Shown: positions 19,135 to 53,374 of the stretch, piece by piece
How the letters are laid out: every line of letters starts with the position of its first letter
Numbering within the stretch: the stretch's first letter is position 1
Virus genome (UHGV): UHGV-0138535
Strand: one strand, 5' to 3'
Origin: a virus
Length of the DNA stretch: 53,721 nt
Program-made: the position numbers and the translations under genes
Notes under the pieces: model-generated
Database searches by the model: none
What the model was told of the DNA's origin: nothing
Seen by the model: the letters and a program-made list of their open reading frames with translations, nothing else

Positions 19135-19156
19135 CATTTTGTGATCTGCGTTACAC
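19135..19156. promoter_or_regulatory. conserved 22-bp element with CRP-like core (TGTGA-N6-TTACA) upstream of fibre gene
   Basis: CATTTTGTGATCTGCGTTACAC; 20/22 identical to element at 26486..26507. Confidence 0.35.
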
Positions 19157-19291
19157 TTTGGGCTTATACATAATGTATTTTTTGATCTATATCAACATAC
19201 GAAATGATAGCTTCTGCGGTGATTTGCTCATCGGATGGGTGGATCATCACGAACAACAAATGACAGTAAAACAAACAGTAAGGTGAATACA

Positions 19292-19537
19292 ATGAAAAAA
19301 CTAATTGTTGCTTGCATCTTATCAGCTCTGTCTTTTGGTGCTTTTGCTTCTGTAAATTCGACAGATAAGAGTGATGCTGGCACTGCTCAATATGGTGATA
19401 CTGGCCTTGATAACCAACGTTCGAGTTATTTCAATACTGACTCATGGAAAGAAAAACAACTACAAGGTAAAATTATTGACAGTGAATGTAATTTACCTAT
19501 CCATTTTTCTGGTGTAAATGATGGGTGTAAAAAATAA
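19292..19537 (+). CDS. small secreted protein (signal peptide; moron)
   Basis: ATG at 19292 with AAGGTGA RBS inside track ORF; MKKLIVACILSALSFGAFA signal-peptide-like N-terminus; opposite strand to tail genes. Confidence 0.5.
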   Translation: MKKLIVACILSALSFGAFASVNSTDKSDAGTAQYGDTGLDNQRSSYFNTDSWKEKQLQGKIIDSECNLPIHFSGVNDGCKK

Positions 19538-19548
19538 AAACAATGCAT

Positions 19549-19578
19549 AAAAAAAACGGGGCTTATGCCCCGTTTTTT
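19549..19578. terminator. bidirectional intrinsic terminator
   Basis: AAAAAAAACGGGGC-TTAT-GCCCCGTTTTTT: GC stem flanked by A-run and T-run between convergent genes. Confidence 0.6.
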
Positions 19579-22500
19579 ATGCTGTCGTTGATGTTCTAAA
19601 TGATCCGGTGCCTCTTGCTACTATCATTGTTGGAGAATACAACGCGGTACAATATGCGTATCCTTCAGATGATGATGTTTGAGGACAATATATTTTCCCG
19701 ATAATATCTGATGCTTTTAAACCAGAAAAAGCGCATTGCACTGTTAATGTGCATCCACCATAAGGCACGTAATATGAAATTGTTTTGTTTTTATCTCCGC
19801 AACTAAACGTTACGTTATAAGTGGATCTATATTCACCAGACATTAATGAAATAGTCGCCATAAGCATAACTGATTTCGTCAATGCATTATCCGTGCTGTC
19901 TTTATATGTGATGGTTGCGCTATAACTTCCGTTATGCCCAAGCACTCGATCTGGACCAACCCCCATGTTAGCAACGTCACCGACAAATGACTTTGCCTCT
20001 ACTGTACCTTTAAACTTCCCGCTTGTGGCCTGAATCTCACCAGTGAATTTACCAGATGTTGCGTACACTGTACCGCGTACAGTGACGTTGTTGAACTCCG
20101 CATTGCCGTTTTTATTTAGCATCCAGCCAGCCGAACCAGCTTTATAGTTGGTTGACTGAATTTGCTGCGCAATCTTCGCGGTAGTGATTGATGCGTCTCT
20201 GATCCACGCATCACGGATGTAGCAAGCACCGTTAGTAACATAGAACGGGGTCTGATAGGAGCCACCTGCCGCAGTCATAAGCACGAAACGGTCAACGAGG
20301 AAAATACACTGCGATTGAACGTTAGTCCCGCTACCAGTAAGGCCGAGCGACATTCCTGTAGCGTATTTCATACCGTTTTTATCAGTGGCAATCTTAATTG
20401 AATATGACGCATCAACGTTACCTTTGAAGTCAGTCAGTGCTTTTGATGTCGTTTCTATCGCCGTTGTGTTTCCGTTAATAGTTACTTTCAACTGGTCGAT
20501 TCTGGTTGACAATGCCTCGTCTGCCGTTGCCATAGCCTGTGACCATTCCGTGATGCTTGAGTTTACATCGTCGAAAGATGCCGAGATCTGGCCAAATTTT
20601 TCCGCGCTTGATGTTTCATGCGTAGAAAGTGCAGTTGACACTTCGGATACTTTCGAATTAATCGTACTGGTAAGCGATGAGTTAAGGCTGCTGATTGCGT
20701 CAGTGCGTGCATTCTTCTCATCTGCGATCGCTTTATCCATCCTGGTTACGTTGCTTGTCACCTTGCTATCGAGCGTGGAAATTGACGCATTAACCCCGCT
20801 AATAGCTTCTGCGCGTGCGCTCGCCTCATCTGCGATTGCTTTATCAAGACGGGAAACGCTCGCGTCGGTTTTGCTTTCAAGACTACTGACGCTGGCGTTA
20901 ACGTTGCTAATAGCTTCTGCGCGTGCGCTCGCCTCATCTGCGATTGCTGTGTCTACCCTTGCTATTTCCGCTTTTGTTTTTCTTTGTCCTTTCCTGTATT
21001 TCGCCTCAATAACAGTGCTCATCTTGCTTTGCGCCATTGAGTTATTAATAAGCGCCAGAGATGCGTTTTGCAGACCTGCTTTCGCCTGAACTATCTCGTC
21101 GCTGTTTTTATCAACCTCACTTTTAACGCTGCCAAGCGACGCGCTGATACCTGATATCGCCTGAGCGCGTGTGCTTGATTCGTCAGCGATAGCTTGATCA
21201 AGACGGCTAACACTGGCATTTGTGTTATTTTCAAGCGTTGTTAAATCAGCTTTAACCGCTGTTATTGCGTCGCTTCTTGCCTGCGTTTCATCTGATATTG
21301 CCTTATCGAGGCGCTTAACACTGGCGTCAGTTTTCTTGTCAAGCGTTGAGATACTTGCGTTCACGTCGCTGATAGCCTGAGTACGCGCACTTGTTTCGTC
21401 TGCAATTGCCCGATCAAGACGGTTTACGCTGGCGTCAGTTTTCTTGTCAAGATTGCTTATTGAGGCATTTACACCGTTAATAGCTTCAGCGCGAGCGCTG
21501 GCCTCGTCAGCTACTGCGCGTTGCACATTAGAGATCTGACCTTTAAGGTTTGTGTCCATCACATTCATTTCTGCCGTGATGGTTTCCAGTGATTCCGCTG
21601 TCGCTTTTTTCTCTTCAGCGATAACGTTGTCAATGCGGTCAATTTCCGCTTTCGTCTCTGTCCTGCCTTTCTTGTACTGAGCGGTAAGAGTTACGCGAGT
21701 GTTAGTCTGTGCAAGCGAGTTATTAATAAGAGCAAGTGAGGCGTTTTGCAGACTTGCTTTTGCTTGCGCCAGTTCGCTGCCAACTTTTTCGCTAGACACC
21801 TCCAGCGAGTCGATTCTCGACTCATGCTGTCCAATATCATCGGCGTTTTCCTTAACTTTTTTATAAAGATCTTCCGTTTCTTTTTTGAGCGTATCAGTAT
21901 CAGCTTTTATTGATCCTGTTTCTATGGTTAGGTTGTCAGTTTCAGTCCTTAAATCGTCAGTTATGTTGGTCAGATTATCAGTTGCAGTTTTGAGGTTGTC
22001 AGTAGCAGTTTTAAGGTCATTCGTAGCGCTTTCGATAAGATCAGTGCGGTCGCCTAGATCTTTAATGTCACCAACCATTTCTTTAAATTGTTTGGAATTC
22101 ATTACGTCTTTGGTGACGTAATCGGTAATTTCATCAAAGTTTTCTGTTGGCTTACCTGACGCTTCCACAAAGTCAGACACACCAAAAGCGTTACGCGCGC
22201 GCACATAAACGTAATATGTGTGACCTGTATTCATGCCGCCAAACGTCCACTGATGACCACGCCCGGTATATTGTGCTTTAGTGGTTATTGATGCCGGATC
22301 AGTGATCTGCGTTTCACCTGAGTAATAAAACTCGTAACTGGTATCAGTGGTGAGCGTTGTTCTGCTGATCGGGTAAACTGTAGCCTGGAATACACCGGGA
22401 ACCCAATTAACGCCAACTGGGGCCGCTGGTGCGCCAATAACCAGATCGACAATGCTTTCCGCACCCTTCATGCCCGTGTCATTTCTGCCACGAATGCCTA

Positions 22501-51956: not shown

Positions 51957-52445
51957 CAAAATCTCCTTGCTTACACCATTGTTTTCATGGAAACAATATT
52001 TTTTTTCTCCTTTTTTTCTGACATCCACTGCATCTTCAAAATTATCAAACTGACCAAGATACACATTTTTACCATTAACACATATTTCCGCTCTATAGTA
52101 TCCGTTAGAAAGTTTATGAACCCCAGGCTGCCCACTTTTATTATTTTTTGGTTTTGCCTGATTTCTTCCGTTTTGCTTATGAGTAACAAGGCGTAAATTT
52201 TCTATCCTGTTATCATTTCTGTTGTGCCAAATATGATCTATCTCGCATCCTTTCGGAATTGGTCCGTTATGCATTTCCCATATAATTCTATGTACTTTAT
52301 GTAATTTATCGTTAACACGAACAACCCAATAACCACTATTTTTATGGATGCAACCAGCCAAATCACCAGCGTTACACTTTCCTTTCTTTCCCTTCCAATA
52401 TAAAAAACCGTTGTCGTATTCAAATATATCATGCCAATTATTCAT
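51957..52445 (-). CDS. HNH homing endonuclease with AP2-like DNA-binding domain (no own stop; in frame with rusA)
   Basis: N-terminal 163 codons of track ORF 51549..52445; HNH motif CEIDHIWHNRNDNRIENLRLVTHKQN and AP2-like GVHKLSNGYYRAEI; AT-rich. Confidence 0.65.
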
Positions 52446-53047
52446 GCTACCTTTCTCCTTAAGGCGTCCAATTTCGCCTGATAGATGTTTATTAGCTCCT
52501 TACATTCTGCAATCGTCCATTTATGCGTATCGTTGTTGTTCTCCAGAGCTACCACCCTGGCGAGGCCAATTTTTCGAATTAGCGCCGGGCGATACCCTCC
52601 TATGTTTCCGTCTAATGTCTGGTTGCAGTGCCTGCATTGTTTATGGCAATTCTCCTCGTTAAAGCGAAGGTGTCCTGCGGCGGCAACCGTCCTGTAATGG
52701 CCCGCATCCCACCCGCATTGCTCACCGTAGTAAGTCCCGCAGGATATACACGGCAAGCGCGCGTCACGTTCGCGGATATAGGCGTTGAATACGTTTTGAA
52801 CTTGCTTGATCCAGTAGCTGCGCGGATTTAACTGTTTCCGCTTCCGGTTGCGTTCTTCCCGCTGGCTATCGCGGCGTTTCTTCCGTTCCATAGCCTTCAT
52901 AGCCTTTTCACGGTCGCGGCATAGCTGGTCAAACTTCAGTTCTTCCAGACATTCATCGCTGCACCACGTTTGATTATGATATTTAGGCTCAAAAAAAACG
53001 CCGCAGCACTTGCAACGGCGTCTTATGGGTTTTTTAGGGTTTTGCAT
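52442..53047 (-). CDS. ninG: NinG recombination protein
   Basis: Start MQNPKK at 53047 inside track ORF 52442..53137; closely parallels lambda NinG (PRSYWIKQ...RERD..LPCISCGT...WDAGHYRT.AAA..LRFNE.N.HKQC..CNQ). Confidence 0.8.
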   Translation of the reverse strand: MQNPKKPIRRRCKCCGVFFEPKYHNQTWCSDECLEELKFDQLCRDREKAMKAMERKKRRDSQREERNRKRKQLNPRSYWIKQVQNVFNAYIRERDARLPCISCGTYYGEQCGWDAGHYRTVAAAGHLRFNEENCHKQCRHCNQTLDGNIGGYRPALIRKIGLARVVALENNNDTHKWTIAECKELINIYQAKLDALRRKVA

Positions 53048-53061
53048 AAAAACCACCCCGA

Positions 53062-53238
53062 TTATTTTTGATTCTCTGTTTCGTTCAGCCTTTCGGCGTG
53101 TCCGGCCCTTAGCCAATGTTCTAAGCATTCGTTGCACTCGTTACAGCCTCCTTTCTTCGTGCTGCATACATTGCACATTGCACGCATAACGCTTTCTCGT
53201 TCATAGTCGTCATGCCATTGGTAATTATCAAAAGGCAT
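53062..53238 (-). CDS. ninF: NinF-like small zinc-binding protein (58 aa)
   Basis: ATG with GGAGAG RBS; YERESVMRAMCNVC...CNECNEC resembles lambda NinF; not in track. Confidence 0.55.
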   Translation of the reverse strand: MPFDNYQWHDDYERESVMRAMCNVCSTKKGGCNECNECLEHWLRAGHAERLNETENQK

Positions 53239-53358
53239 AATGCTCTCTCCTTTTCAGGTGATTTCTACGCATTTCAGCGCTGCCGGATTTTTAAAGAGCA
53301 TTTTGTTTGCTTGAAGTATACAAAATGGATACGTGCTAACAAGGTGCAAAGCGCCATT

Positions 53359-53374
53359 ATGTGACATTCATCAC
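53359..53374. promoter_or_regulatory. CRP-type palindrome TGTGACATTCATCACA
   Basis: Perfect TGTGA-N6-TCACA flanked by inverted CCATTTTGT / ACAAAATGG motifs. Confidence 0.35.

Follow-up and report, generated by a model that had tools for sequence, protein, structure and literature searches.

The motif CCATTTTGTR, which recurs along the window (the whole stretch of DNA analysed, 53,721 nucleotides), most likely serves as a binding site for the λ CI-type repressor that the phage itself encodes, and is predicted to lie at a dozen or more promoter regions genome-wide. From the sequence evidence we put at roughly 70% the probability that the motif is an operator of the Rep021 family, here unusually dispersed, and the individual sites are regarded as candidates. 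The window represents the genome of an mEp021-like (mEpimmI) coliphage in circularly permuted form, and the published description of this phage group gives the operators of its repressor as not known. A Q-type antiterminator family protein (Pfam PF03589) is also encoded in the window, at 50642-51364.

Over-representation of the motif

When motif statistics were run against shuffles, as a preliminary description of this DNA had proposed, CCATTTTGTR gave 11 exact matches on the two strands of the window against 0.44 expected, and 11 was reached in 0 of 100 shuffles. No other 9-mer or 10-mer of the window is as over-represented, and among 10-mers it also ranks first in about 30 related genomes, where its positions fall into about 12 conserved classes. 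Eight exact copies are in intergenic DNA (7107, 7951, 19134, 27039, 30018, 30044, 53319 and 53384), one at 11549 spans a stop codon 18 nt ahead of the next gene, and two are in coding DNA, at 27430 (ParE-like ORF) and 38117 (portal gene). Further intergenic copies with one mismatch are found at 3004, 6428, 10411, 26968, 46582 and 46608. Some one-mismatch matches are mere coding or start-codon context; that at 7863, for example, is formed by the repressor codons M-K-T-K-W. All the sequences that the preliminary description cited are present; the motif extends also to 3.0-11.6 kb, outside the range it considered.

Match to the proposed operators of the repressor family

The motif CCATTTTGTA lies at the core of a pseudo-palindrome of 13 bp, whose window consensus is ATaCATTTTGTAT. 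Its proposed ligand is the CI-type repressor, a Rep021 homologue, encoded at 7230..7877 on the minus strand (Pfam HTH_3 and Peptidase_S24). The closest solved structure is λ CI (3bdn, E=1.4e-20), and the N-terminal domain shares 97% identity with proteins annotated as cI repressors in mEp554 and mEp013. Distant phages and prophages whose repressors have a homologous DNA-binding domain carry the form ATAC-N5-GTAT only beside the repressor gene, with a family layout of three sites upstream of rep and, in most, a 25-bp-spaced pair downstream. In the phage L149, which has no DNA similarity to the window, three such palindromes lie between cro and rep and a site pair lies ahead of boxA and an N-like gene. 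The recognition helix is common to the L149 and window repressors, and no similarity was detectable between their Cro-like proteins. About 24 prophages, from Citrobacter to Pseudomonas, encode a homologous DNA-binding domain. In most of them, two or three sites resembling ATAC-N5-GTAT lie at or close to −81, −49 and −22 from the rep ATG, and downstream of rep most have one to three sites, about half as a 25-bp pair.

An independent matrix was built solely from these foreign sites. It found 11 window sites at ≥13.5 bits against 0.8 expected (simulation maximum 3, n=200), 7 of them intergenic, while intergenic DNA makes up 8% of the genome. In the complete control genomes ST64T and BHUENT6, which have homologous repressors, its matches, apart from one stray at most, were confined to the two clusters of operators on either side of the repressor gene. 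Across 31 genomes the distances between neighbouring matches peak sharply at 24-25 bp (76 of 125), a peak lacking from a Markov control, and this agrees with the 25-bp pairs downstream of rep in relatives. High-scoring sites within coding DNA (39135, 43995 and 27429) count against the operator reading.

Arrangement of the sites at predicted promoters

The window sites often occur as pairs 24-25 bp apart, one near −41 and the other over the −10 of a predicted σ70 promoter. Operators take these −41/−16 positions at predicted promoters that include both early promoters upstream of known nut sites. The predicted early promoter toward the replication genes (7937..7964, plus strand, TTGATC-N16-TAAACT) has operator TTCCATTTTGTAA overlapping its spacer and −10 (7949-7961, varying to CCATTCTGTAA in relatives), a weak second operator (7914-7926) and a nut boxA downstream (8041-8056). 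One good and one weak operator in the cro-rep region, against three in the family, is a point against the operator reading. At the predicted N-like gene promoter (7077..7117, minus strand, TTGACT-N17-TATATT), operator ATACAAAATGGAT is centred at −41 (7105-7117) and TTACGGGGCGTAT, 25 bp from it, at −16 (7080-7092), with the nutR1 boxA nearby (7018-7034); the same pair layout is seen again after rep in the majority of the unrelated prophages that encode a homologous repressor. Another pair, 24 bp apart, lies at 3003..3039 on the minus strand (ATCCGTTTTGTAA, 3003-3015; ATACACTTTGTAT, 3027-3039), and in mEp021 a CRP-like dyad stands ahead of the equivalent pair. Single operators are found directly after the N-like gene stop codon (TTACATTTTGTAT, 6426..6438, 16.8 bits, in 29 of 31 genomes) and between two replication-operon genes (ATACAAAATGTAA, 10410..10422, 16.8 bits), and an operator-like TTCCATTTTGTAA, the same as the 7949 site, overlaps the stop codon that lies 18 nt ahead of the helicase gene (11547..11559, 28 genomes). 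Two observations speak against the operator reading: no convincing promoter was seen at the single sites 6426 and 11547, and a generic σ70 scan gave fewer hits than it did with shuffled sequence and picked up only one of the proposed promoters.

In related phages such operators are confined to either side of the repressor gene, and what is unusual in this group is the presence of extra internal copies: before nutR2, before gene 46541, at divergent cargo (moron) promoters beside the tape-measure, M-like and L-like genes, beside the side-fibre gene, and as the single sites between early genes. The region before nutR2 (53285..53394, minus strand; nutR2 position from PMC11893012) contains a motif site (53382-53394), a perfect CRP-like dyad (53360-53375, centre about −59.5), a predicted promoter TTGTTA-N16-TATACT (53315-53342) with operator ATCCATTTTGTAT over its −10 (53318-53330), and a boxA (53285-53300). 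The module before gene 46263-46541 (46577..46638, minus strand) has a perfect dyad (46623-46638), two motif sites 25 bp apart (46606-46618 and 46581-46593) and a predicted −10, TATAAA or TTATAA. It is paralogous over about 80 bp to the module that separates the tape-measure gene from a divergent VasI-like cargo gene, 30103-30762 (29996..30057, plus strand). There the half-site noted in the preliminary description was recovered (TGTGATCT, 29996-30011), followed by operators at 30017-30029 (−41) and 30042-30054 (−16) of a predicted promoter TTTACT-N17-TATAAG, and the block is conserved in 34 distinct sequences despite a differing adjacent cargo gene. A weak mirror-image promoter is also predicted toward the tape-measure gene.

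Between the L-like and M-like genes, a module directed away from L (26491..26555, plus strand) comprises a CRP-like dyad (26491-26506), operator-like ATACCAAAATGGAT (26514-26527) and a predicted promoter TTGATC-N17-TATATT (26527-26555) with operator TTACAATATGTAT over its −10 (26540-26552). Upstream of the M-like gene (26966..27078, plus strand), operator TTACATTTTGTAT is present again (26966-26978), and a motif site (27038-27050) is centred at −41 of a predicted promoter TTCACA-N17-TATATA (27050-27078) toward a ParE-like toxin ORF (ParE_like). Upstream of the side-fibre gene (19140..19178), where a cargo-facing promoter was not identified, a CRP-like dyad TGTGATCTGCGTTACA (19140-19155) is accompanied by the perfect operator ATACATAATGTAT (19166-19178), the top match of the independent matrix at 18.6 bits.

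Elements distinct from the proposed operator

The operator, the CRP-like dyad and a 25-bp element are distinct, and the preliminary description had gathered them into a single class. The 25-bp element shared by the M-like gene (first copy, 26984-27008) and the portal gene (second copy, 39334..39358, minus strand, late-sense TATTTTTCGCGTAG-N3-CGCGTAAA) has 2 exact window matches against 0 expected. Its 59 copies in 31 genomes are all on the late-gene strand and only at these two loci; it is real, strand-specific and separate from the operator. The 22-bp element upstream of the side-fibre and L-like genes (19135-19156 and 26486-26507) is 20/22 identical as described, and is a composite: its CRP-like dyad directly adjoins a weak operator-like motif. 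Both perfect TGTGA-N6-TCACA palindromes are present as well (2 against 0.07 expected), the second lying one base from the coordinates first given. With one mismatch allowed there are 6 dyads against 1.58 expected, and since 1 of 100 shuffles reaches 6 this count is weak alone.

At class I promoters CRP-cAMP binds about 60 bp upstream of the start, as at lac P1 with CRP at −61.5. In the window the dyads lie 18-22 bp outside the distal operator, some 60 bp ahead of the predicted start; in four or five modules their centres are at −59.5 to −63.5. As at class I sites, the arms are conserved and the centre varies: at nutR2 (28 distinct relatives) and at the L gene (26) the arms do not vary at all, and the centre is hypervariable. 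The left halves of the palindromes match the extended CRP consensus, AAATGTGATCT. Against CRP, the starts in the window are predictions, relatives keep just one half-site at 46623 and at the tape-measure gene, and the L and side-fibre dyads also span +1 to +16 of a late-sense promoter candidate in the opposite orientation. The dyads are plausibly CRP sites, separate from the operator, and we would give this even odds.

Alternative explanations

It is unlikely, though not negligibly so, that the motif, rather than being a repressor operator, is a phage-specific core-promoter element, for example forming spacer and −10 for RNA polymerase, or a Q-type antiterminator site. The DNA-binding element of λ Q lies between −35 and −10, and the window encodes a Q-family protein; a −10-like hexamer (TATAAA, TATACT, TAAACT or TATAAG) begins within the motif at many sites, and several sites are 30-100 nt upstream of gene starts. 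However, the identical 13-mer occurs in two registers, centred at −41 and −16, has dyad symmetry, and is found where there is no plausible promoter, as directly after the N stop codon. Moreover, it matches sites that in unrelated phages are confined to the surroundings of the repressor gene, and ST64T, with a phage-21-type Q, has sites only at its two operator clusters.

Slightly less probable is that the main ligand of the dispersed sites is another phage protein, the Cro-like first product of the rightward operon or a small helix-turn-helix protein, with the repressor acting only by its own gene. Since λ Cro and CI use common operators, at least some of the sites can be expected to have a second ligand. 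Many window sites have a conserved CC in one half (xxCCATTTTGTA) that deviates from the family dyad and scores low with the symmetric foreign matrix (−1.9 bits at 46581, 1.3 bits at 53382), which also tells against the operator reading; either this half is tolerated or preferred by Rep021, or another constraint acts there. Nevertheless, the recognition helices of the window and L149 repressors match while the Cro-like proteins have no detectable similarity, and the 24-25 bp pairing of the dispersed sites is that found downstream of rep in the repressor family.

It is very improbable that the conserved blocks are mainly recombination junctions for cargo swapping between phages, lacking a regulatory role of their own. 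The tape-measure upstream block is conserved beside at least four different cargo sequences, and two modules are paralogous over about 80 bp; within the blocks, however, conservation is focused on dyad arms and operator cores while intervening positions vary, and the sites occur also at early promoters and match the operators of the repressor family. Recombination boxes may be a by-product of a conserved module beside variable cargo genes, and are not needed for the data. That host CRP-cAMP is the common factor for all the motifs is hardly tenable: the palindromes fit TGTGA-N6-TCACA, their left halves AAATGTGATCT, and their arms are conserved around variable centres, but CCATTTTGTA is unlike a CRP site and far commoner than the dyads, motif and dyad hold different positions within each module, and the one-mismatch dyad count barely exceeds chance. 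Of the shared regulator first suggested, host CRP or a phage factor, the phage factor at conserved promoters is supported for the main motif, given the family-operator match and the −41/−16 registers; CRP does not account for CCATTTTGTA and is left as a fair candidate for the separate TGTGA-N6-TCACA dyads alone.

Comparison with known systems

The repressor reading has a close parallel in λ OR/OL. λ CI binds cooperatively in pairs, and from OR2 it activates PRM and from OR3 represses it. The window repressor is homologous (HTH and S24 peptidase), the sites are likewise pseudo-symmetric with one consensus and one non-consensus half, neighbours are spaced by about 2.4 helical turns, the early promoter on either side of the repressor gene is overlapped by operators, and the −41/−16 layout resembles that of OR2 and OR3 relative to PRM. 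Unlike λ, the window has 13-bp sites (ATAC-N5-GTAT, against 17 bp), a dozen or more of them outside the immunity region, where λ has none, and a cro-side cluster down to one good and one weak site. In phage P1, too, a single immunity repressor has operators at many separate promoters genome-wide (about 17 for C1), although the P1 operator is asymmetric and 17 bp long, C1 has no relationship to λ CI, and P1 is a plasmid prophage without N/Q antitermination. The stoperators of mycobacteriophages L5/Bxb1 also place a short repressor-binding motif in many short early and late intergenic gaps; these are asymmetric and in one orientation to transcription, whereas the window sites are near-palindromic, in both orientations, and often 24-25 bp pairs over promoter elements. 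The c repressor of Streptomyces phage φC31 has many inverted-repeat operator copies at intergenic promoters, but differs in repressor family, host and site, and its repeats are mostly in the early region.

The analysis shows a sequence pattern with its statistics, conservation and geometry, and the occurrence of that pattern together with the repressor family; repressor binding, promoter activity and the sign of regulation are what we infer. A repressor dimer would occupy each 13-bp site (family form ATAC-N5-GTAT), with cooperative filling of sites spaced 24-26 bp. Within a pair, the operator near −41 would abut the −35, and the other, near −16, would cover spacer and −10. With operators at −41 and over the −10, occupancy in the lysogen would shut or tune the promoter. 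With dyads at the class I position, CRP-cAMP may bring host nutritional input to several of these promoters as well. If the operator reading is true, cargo and internal promoters would be under direct immunity control.

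Genome organization of the virus

By megablast the window was placed among the mEp021-like coliphages (mEpimmI group) at 82-88% identity; phages of this group are reported to be as common as lambdoid phages in human gut isolates. A methyltransferase-like gene spans the two ends (53398-53721 joined to 1-441), and since this ORF of 254 aa, presumably the counterpart of the mEp021 cytosine methyltransferase gene, is continuous across them, the window represents a circularly permuted complete genome. The gene map was based on comparison with the annotated mEp021 record and on Pfam. 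The replication operon runs on the plus strand from 8105. On the minus strand lie the N-like gene (6438-6728), the CI-type repressor gene (7230-7877, the Rep021 homologue, here called rep), the integrase (15484-16776), side fibre (17298-19094), J (19577-24547), L-like (25768-26472), M-like (26598-26951), tape-measure (27633-29975), portal (37941-39332) and terminase genes (39460-41426), the lysis genes (43156-44306), a Q-family antiterminator (PF03589, 50642-51364) and NinG (52442-53137). Rfam and tRNA scans of the window gave no matches. An apparent gap of 900 bp before the small terminase gene (41427-42333, minus strand) proved to be a tandem run of about 9-10 mini-ORFs of 20-35 codons each, with overlapping stop and start signals, which encode hydrophobic single-helix peptides such as MDAYLFIGMAAAVILFLLWK. 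The published account of the mEpimmI group (PMC11893012) describes three nut sites and a repressor, Rep021, that was verified by experiment; it gives the operator sequences as unknown and does not mention the motif CCATTTTGTR.

Over-representation and conservation of an intergenic motif

All sequences quoted in the preliminary description were found in the window, and its impression that a short motif recurs between genes was borne out by counting: CCATTTTGTR occurs 11 times against 0.44 expected, a count reached in no shuffled control, and it tops the ranking by over-representation of both 9-mers and 10-mers in the window. There are 8 exact intergenic copies and 6 with one mismatch, and copies were also found at 3.0-11.6 kb, beyond the range described earlier. 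To this window we added 30 near-complete relatives, assembled from IMG/VR segments of about 20 kb around the tape-measure, repressor and lysozyme genes. In most of them CCATTTTGTR ranks within the top three 10-mers, and its copies fall into about 12 classes, each conserved in position in 17-29 genomes. Upstream of the tape-measure gene, a block of 65 bp (TTATACAAAATGk-N14-mCATTTTGTATAAAATAG-N7-GATCACA) is kept in 34 distinct sequences. A literature search for the motif strings returned nothing relevant.

The motif forms the core of a 13-bp pseudo-palindrome. Four of the five half-site positions are symmetric in the window consensus, and the top sites, at 19166 (ATACATAATGTAT) and 39135, are perfect dyads.

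Co-occurrence of the motif with a repressor family

A pattern search for the inverted pair retrieved L149 (IMGVR_UViG_3300023280_000099), a 9.4-kb fragment of a phage which has no DNA similarity to the window and yet shares its operator type. Three palindromes (ATACATTTCGTAT, ATACAAAATGTGT and ATACAAATTGTAT) separate its cro-like gene from a CI-type repressor gene; cargo genes come next, after which a pair of sites (ATACAAAATGTAT and ATACATTTTGTAT) flanks a −35 and overlaps a −10 hexamer and is followed by boxA and an N-like gene. The N-like gene of this fragment is thus separated from the repressor gene by cargo. The L149 repressor has 44% overall identity to that of the window and a nearly identical recognition helix; no similarity was detectable between the two cro-like proteins.

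Scanning one genome per species for the repressor N-terminal domain yielded about 24 prophages, from Citrobacter, Enterobacter, Xenorhabdus, Serratia, Erwinia and Pantoea to Azotobacter and Pseudomonas. Most of them have 2-3 sites resembling ATAC-N5-GTAT, the family form of the motif, at or near offsets of −81, −49 and −22 from the repressor start, and immediately after that gene a further 1-3 sites, which in about half of the cases form a pair exactly 25 bp apart. Three upstream sites are present in L149, and three in ST64T and two in the Enterobacter phage BHUENT6 score above 12 bits. These upstream and downstream groups are evidently the two putative operator clusters of this repressor family, to which Salmonella ST64T C2, epsilon34, Stx2 phages such as PA12 and others also belong. 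It can be seen that the motif is common to phages without DNA similarity that share the helix ...GxxxHWLNGRREP, and that the sequence of the site tracks the recognition helix. In the window, the sites at 7949 and 7914 lie upstream of rep and those at 7105 and 7080 downstream of it; the third cro-side site is missing, so that the cro-side cluster is reduced.

In L149, L218 and the distant prophages L186-L208, the third operator shares bases with a TATAAT-like hexamer that precedes the repressor ATG by just 7-8 nt, which implies a leaderless repressor mRNA, like that of lambda cI from PRM. The 933W repressor was considered as a characterised relative and rejected, its 15-bp operator being different. 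TTGACTCG and the ACTTGC/GCAAGT palindromes, our first candidates for the repressor operators, were dropped when the family-wide ATAC-N5-GTAT pattern emerged.

Independent matrix and site spacing

A symmetrised matrix was built solely from 44 foreign sites, that is, sites of distant phages and prophages. With this matrix, 11 sites of at least 13.5 bits were found in the window against 0.8 expected (maximum of 3 in 200 simulations). Seven of the 11 are intergenic, where 0.11 would be expected with intergenic DNA making up about 8% of the genome, fractions that are approximate because greedy ORF maps are imperfect in cargo-gene regions. In the complete genomes of ST64T and BHUENT6, the matrix matched only the clusters flanking the repressor gene and one marginal stray, and is therefore specific. 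The same dispersed sites are present in mEp021 itself; among the genomes examined, dispersed sites are peculiar to the mEpimmI group. Distances between neighbouring matches peak at 24-25 bp (76 of 125 in 31 genomes), a peak absent from the Markov control, and the 25-bp spacing, which recurs in relatives, is fixed in a way compatible with cooperative dimers.

Three findings count against the operator reading. In many window sites one half carries a conserved CC and scores low with the symmetric family matrix, the cro-side cluster of the window is reduced, and several strong matches occur in coding DNA. High-scoring operator-like 13-mers were seen within the portal (39135-39147), lysozyme-like (43995-44007) and ParE-like (27429-27441) genes. 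Taken together, statistics, conservation, co-occurrence with the repressor domain across the family, spacing and promoter geometry make it the best-supported reading that the motif is an operator of the Rep021 repressor family, and that in mEpimmI phages operator pairs may have spread to internal and cargo promoters, several of them with a possible CRP-like input.

Position of the sites at predicted promoters

Site and promoter coordinates were checked by script. The sites occupy two registers of predicted σ70 promoters, with centres at about −41, abutting the −35 hexamer, and at about −16, where they extend over the spacer into the first bases of the −10 hexamer. The predicted N-gene promoter (7077-7117, minus strand, TTGACT-N17-TATATT) has a strong operator at −41 and a weaker one at −16, with nutR1 downstream. 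The predicted promoter toward the replication genes (7937-7964, plus strand, TTGATC-N16-TAAACT) has an operator at −16 and is followed by a nut site. Before nutR2, a predicted promoter (53315-53342, minus strand, TTGTTA-N16-TATACT) again has an operator at −16, and boxA follows the predicted start by about 20 nt; such a promoter would explain the third nut site of the group. Elsewhere, pairs are found 25 bp apart at 46581/46606 and 30017/30042, an operator and an operator-like partner lie about 26 bp apart at 26514/26540, and a strong and a weak site lie 24 bp apart at 3003/3027. Of the −35 hexamers at the tape-measure, L-like and M-like loci, the better ones (TTTACT, TTGATC and TTCACA) belong to promoters that face away from the tail genes and read toward cargo: genes for a VasI-like protein and a ParE-like toxin module, and a cluster present in mEp021 but deleted in the window. 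We infer that the repressor would bind these sites and that the promoters would be active; the repressor may either repress or, from −41, activate, as lambda CI does at PRM.

Conserved promoters had been offered earlier as an alternative, and stoperators, which are likewise dispersed, may also be considered. Mycobacteriophage-type stoperators are asymmetric and uniformly oriented with respect to transcription, whereas the window sites are near-palindromic, are found on either strand of a single transcription unit and form inverted pairs, and this model was rejected. A core promoter element would place the motif in a single −10 register, which fails, the sites being found in the −41 and −16 registers and also at positions with no promoter candidate. 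No convincing promoter was found at the single sites 6426, 10410 and 11547, and a generic σ70 scan of the window gave fewer sites than shuffles and flagged just one motif promoter. A start-codon context can be dismissed: TACAAAATGG has an ATG, but the ORFs that follow are of just 2-10 codons, and only some one-mismatch matches (7863, 34166) lie in real start or coding contexts.

CRP-like dyads form a distinct element

The TGTGA-N6-TCACA dyads are an element distinct from the operator motif. Two perfect copies, as reported earlier, are indeed present (0.07 expected), at 46623 and at 53360-53375, the latter having been placed one base off; with one mismatch there are 6 against 1.58 expected, which is weak evidence alone. 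Nine of the ten core positions are matched at 19140 and 26491, and at 29996 only the left half is found. A 22-bp element had also been noted at two of these loci; it consists of a dyad joined to a weak operator-like CATTTTGTG. All 28 distinct relatives share the arms yGTGAT and rTCACA at nutR2, whereas the bases between them vary freely, and the dyad upstream of the L-like gene likewise has conserved arms and a variable centre. In relatives, conservation at the 46623 and tape-measure dyads is limited to TGTGATCT.

Four modules of the window and an additional one in mEp021 have the dyad 18.5-22 bp beyond the distal operator, with centres at −59.5, −60.5, −60.5 and −63.5 of the predicted promoters and at −59.5 in the fifth module. 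CRP activates from −41.5, −61.5, −72.5 and so on, and its extended consensus is AAATGTGATCT, which the left halves of the dyads match. These positions would fit class I CRP activation.

The 25-bp element of the portal and M-like genes

The preliminary description had also noted a 25-bp element shared by the portal and M-like upstream regions (39334-39358 and 26984-27008), and this held: two copies are present against 0 expected. Read in the late sense it is TATTTTTCGCGTAG-N3-CGCGTAAA. Its 59 copies in 31 genomes are found only upstream of portal and M-like genes and all lie on the strand of the late genes; their arms are conserved and their centre varies. An RNA-structure reading was discarded, the 5-bp hairpin of about −6 kcal/mol being no better than shuffles.

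Cargo genes and a possible module duplication

Past the tape-measure block, the divergent cargo gene has at least four unrelated versions among relatives. At 29976-30102 and at its counterpart in the relatives L002-L045, the promoter/operator block is constant and the neighbouring gene exchanged, so that this block looks like a fixed expression port with exchangeable cargo. On the plus strand, the tail-region cargo of the window encodes a ParE-like toxin domain (27292-27546) and a type VI secretion VasI domain (30103-30762). The regions 29996-30075 and 46560-46638 are paralogous modules over about 80 bp, with similarity that takes in the beginning of the 5′ untranslated region (GAAGCTrAAGrGA) and points to intragenomic duplication of a regulatory cassette.

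By analogy with lambda, the conserved modules beside the tail genes could be expression ports, a joint scheme that we consider improbable as a whole. Each port would consist of a CRP-like dyad, an operator at −41 and an operator over the −10 hexamer. The repressor would work there as CI works at lambda PRM: at lysogenic concentrations it would activate from −41, and at higher concentrations it would repress. The immunity repressor itself would then turn on cargo genes such as those for the VasI-like protein, the ParE-like toxin module and exclusion lipoproteins, with cAMP additionally tuning their expression. Single sites between genes would serve as elongation roadblocks in the lysogen.

Implications for the repressor family

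Dispersed operators are known from P1 C1, mycobacteriophage stoperators and phiC31, and the dispersal described here is therefore no new principle. An operator can now be proposed for Rep021, a repressor known experimentally, and the same operator would serve repressors of a wide family, among them Salmonella ST64T/L-type C2 and those of some Stx2 phages. The mEpimmI repressor may directly control many promoters beyond the two early ones, candidate targets being internal promoters, the promoter from which nutR2 and the Q gene would be transcribed, and the tail-region cargo promoters, possibly together with CRP. If true, such direct control of many promoters would amount to a different wiring of the lambda-type switch.
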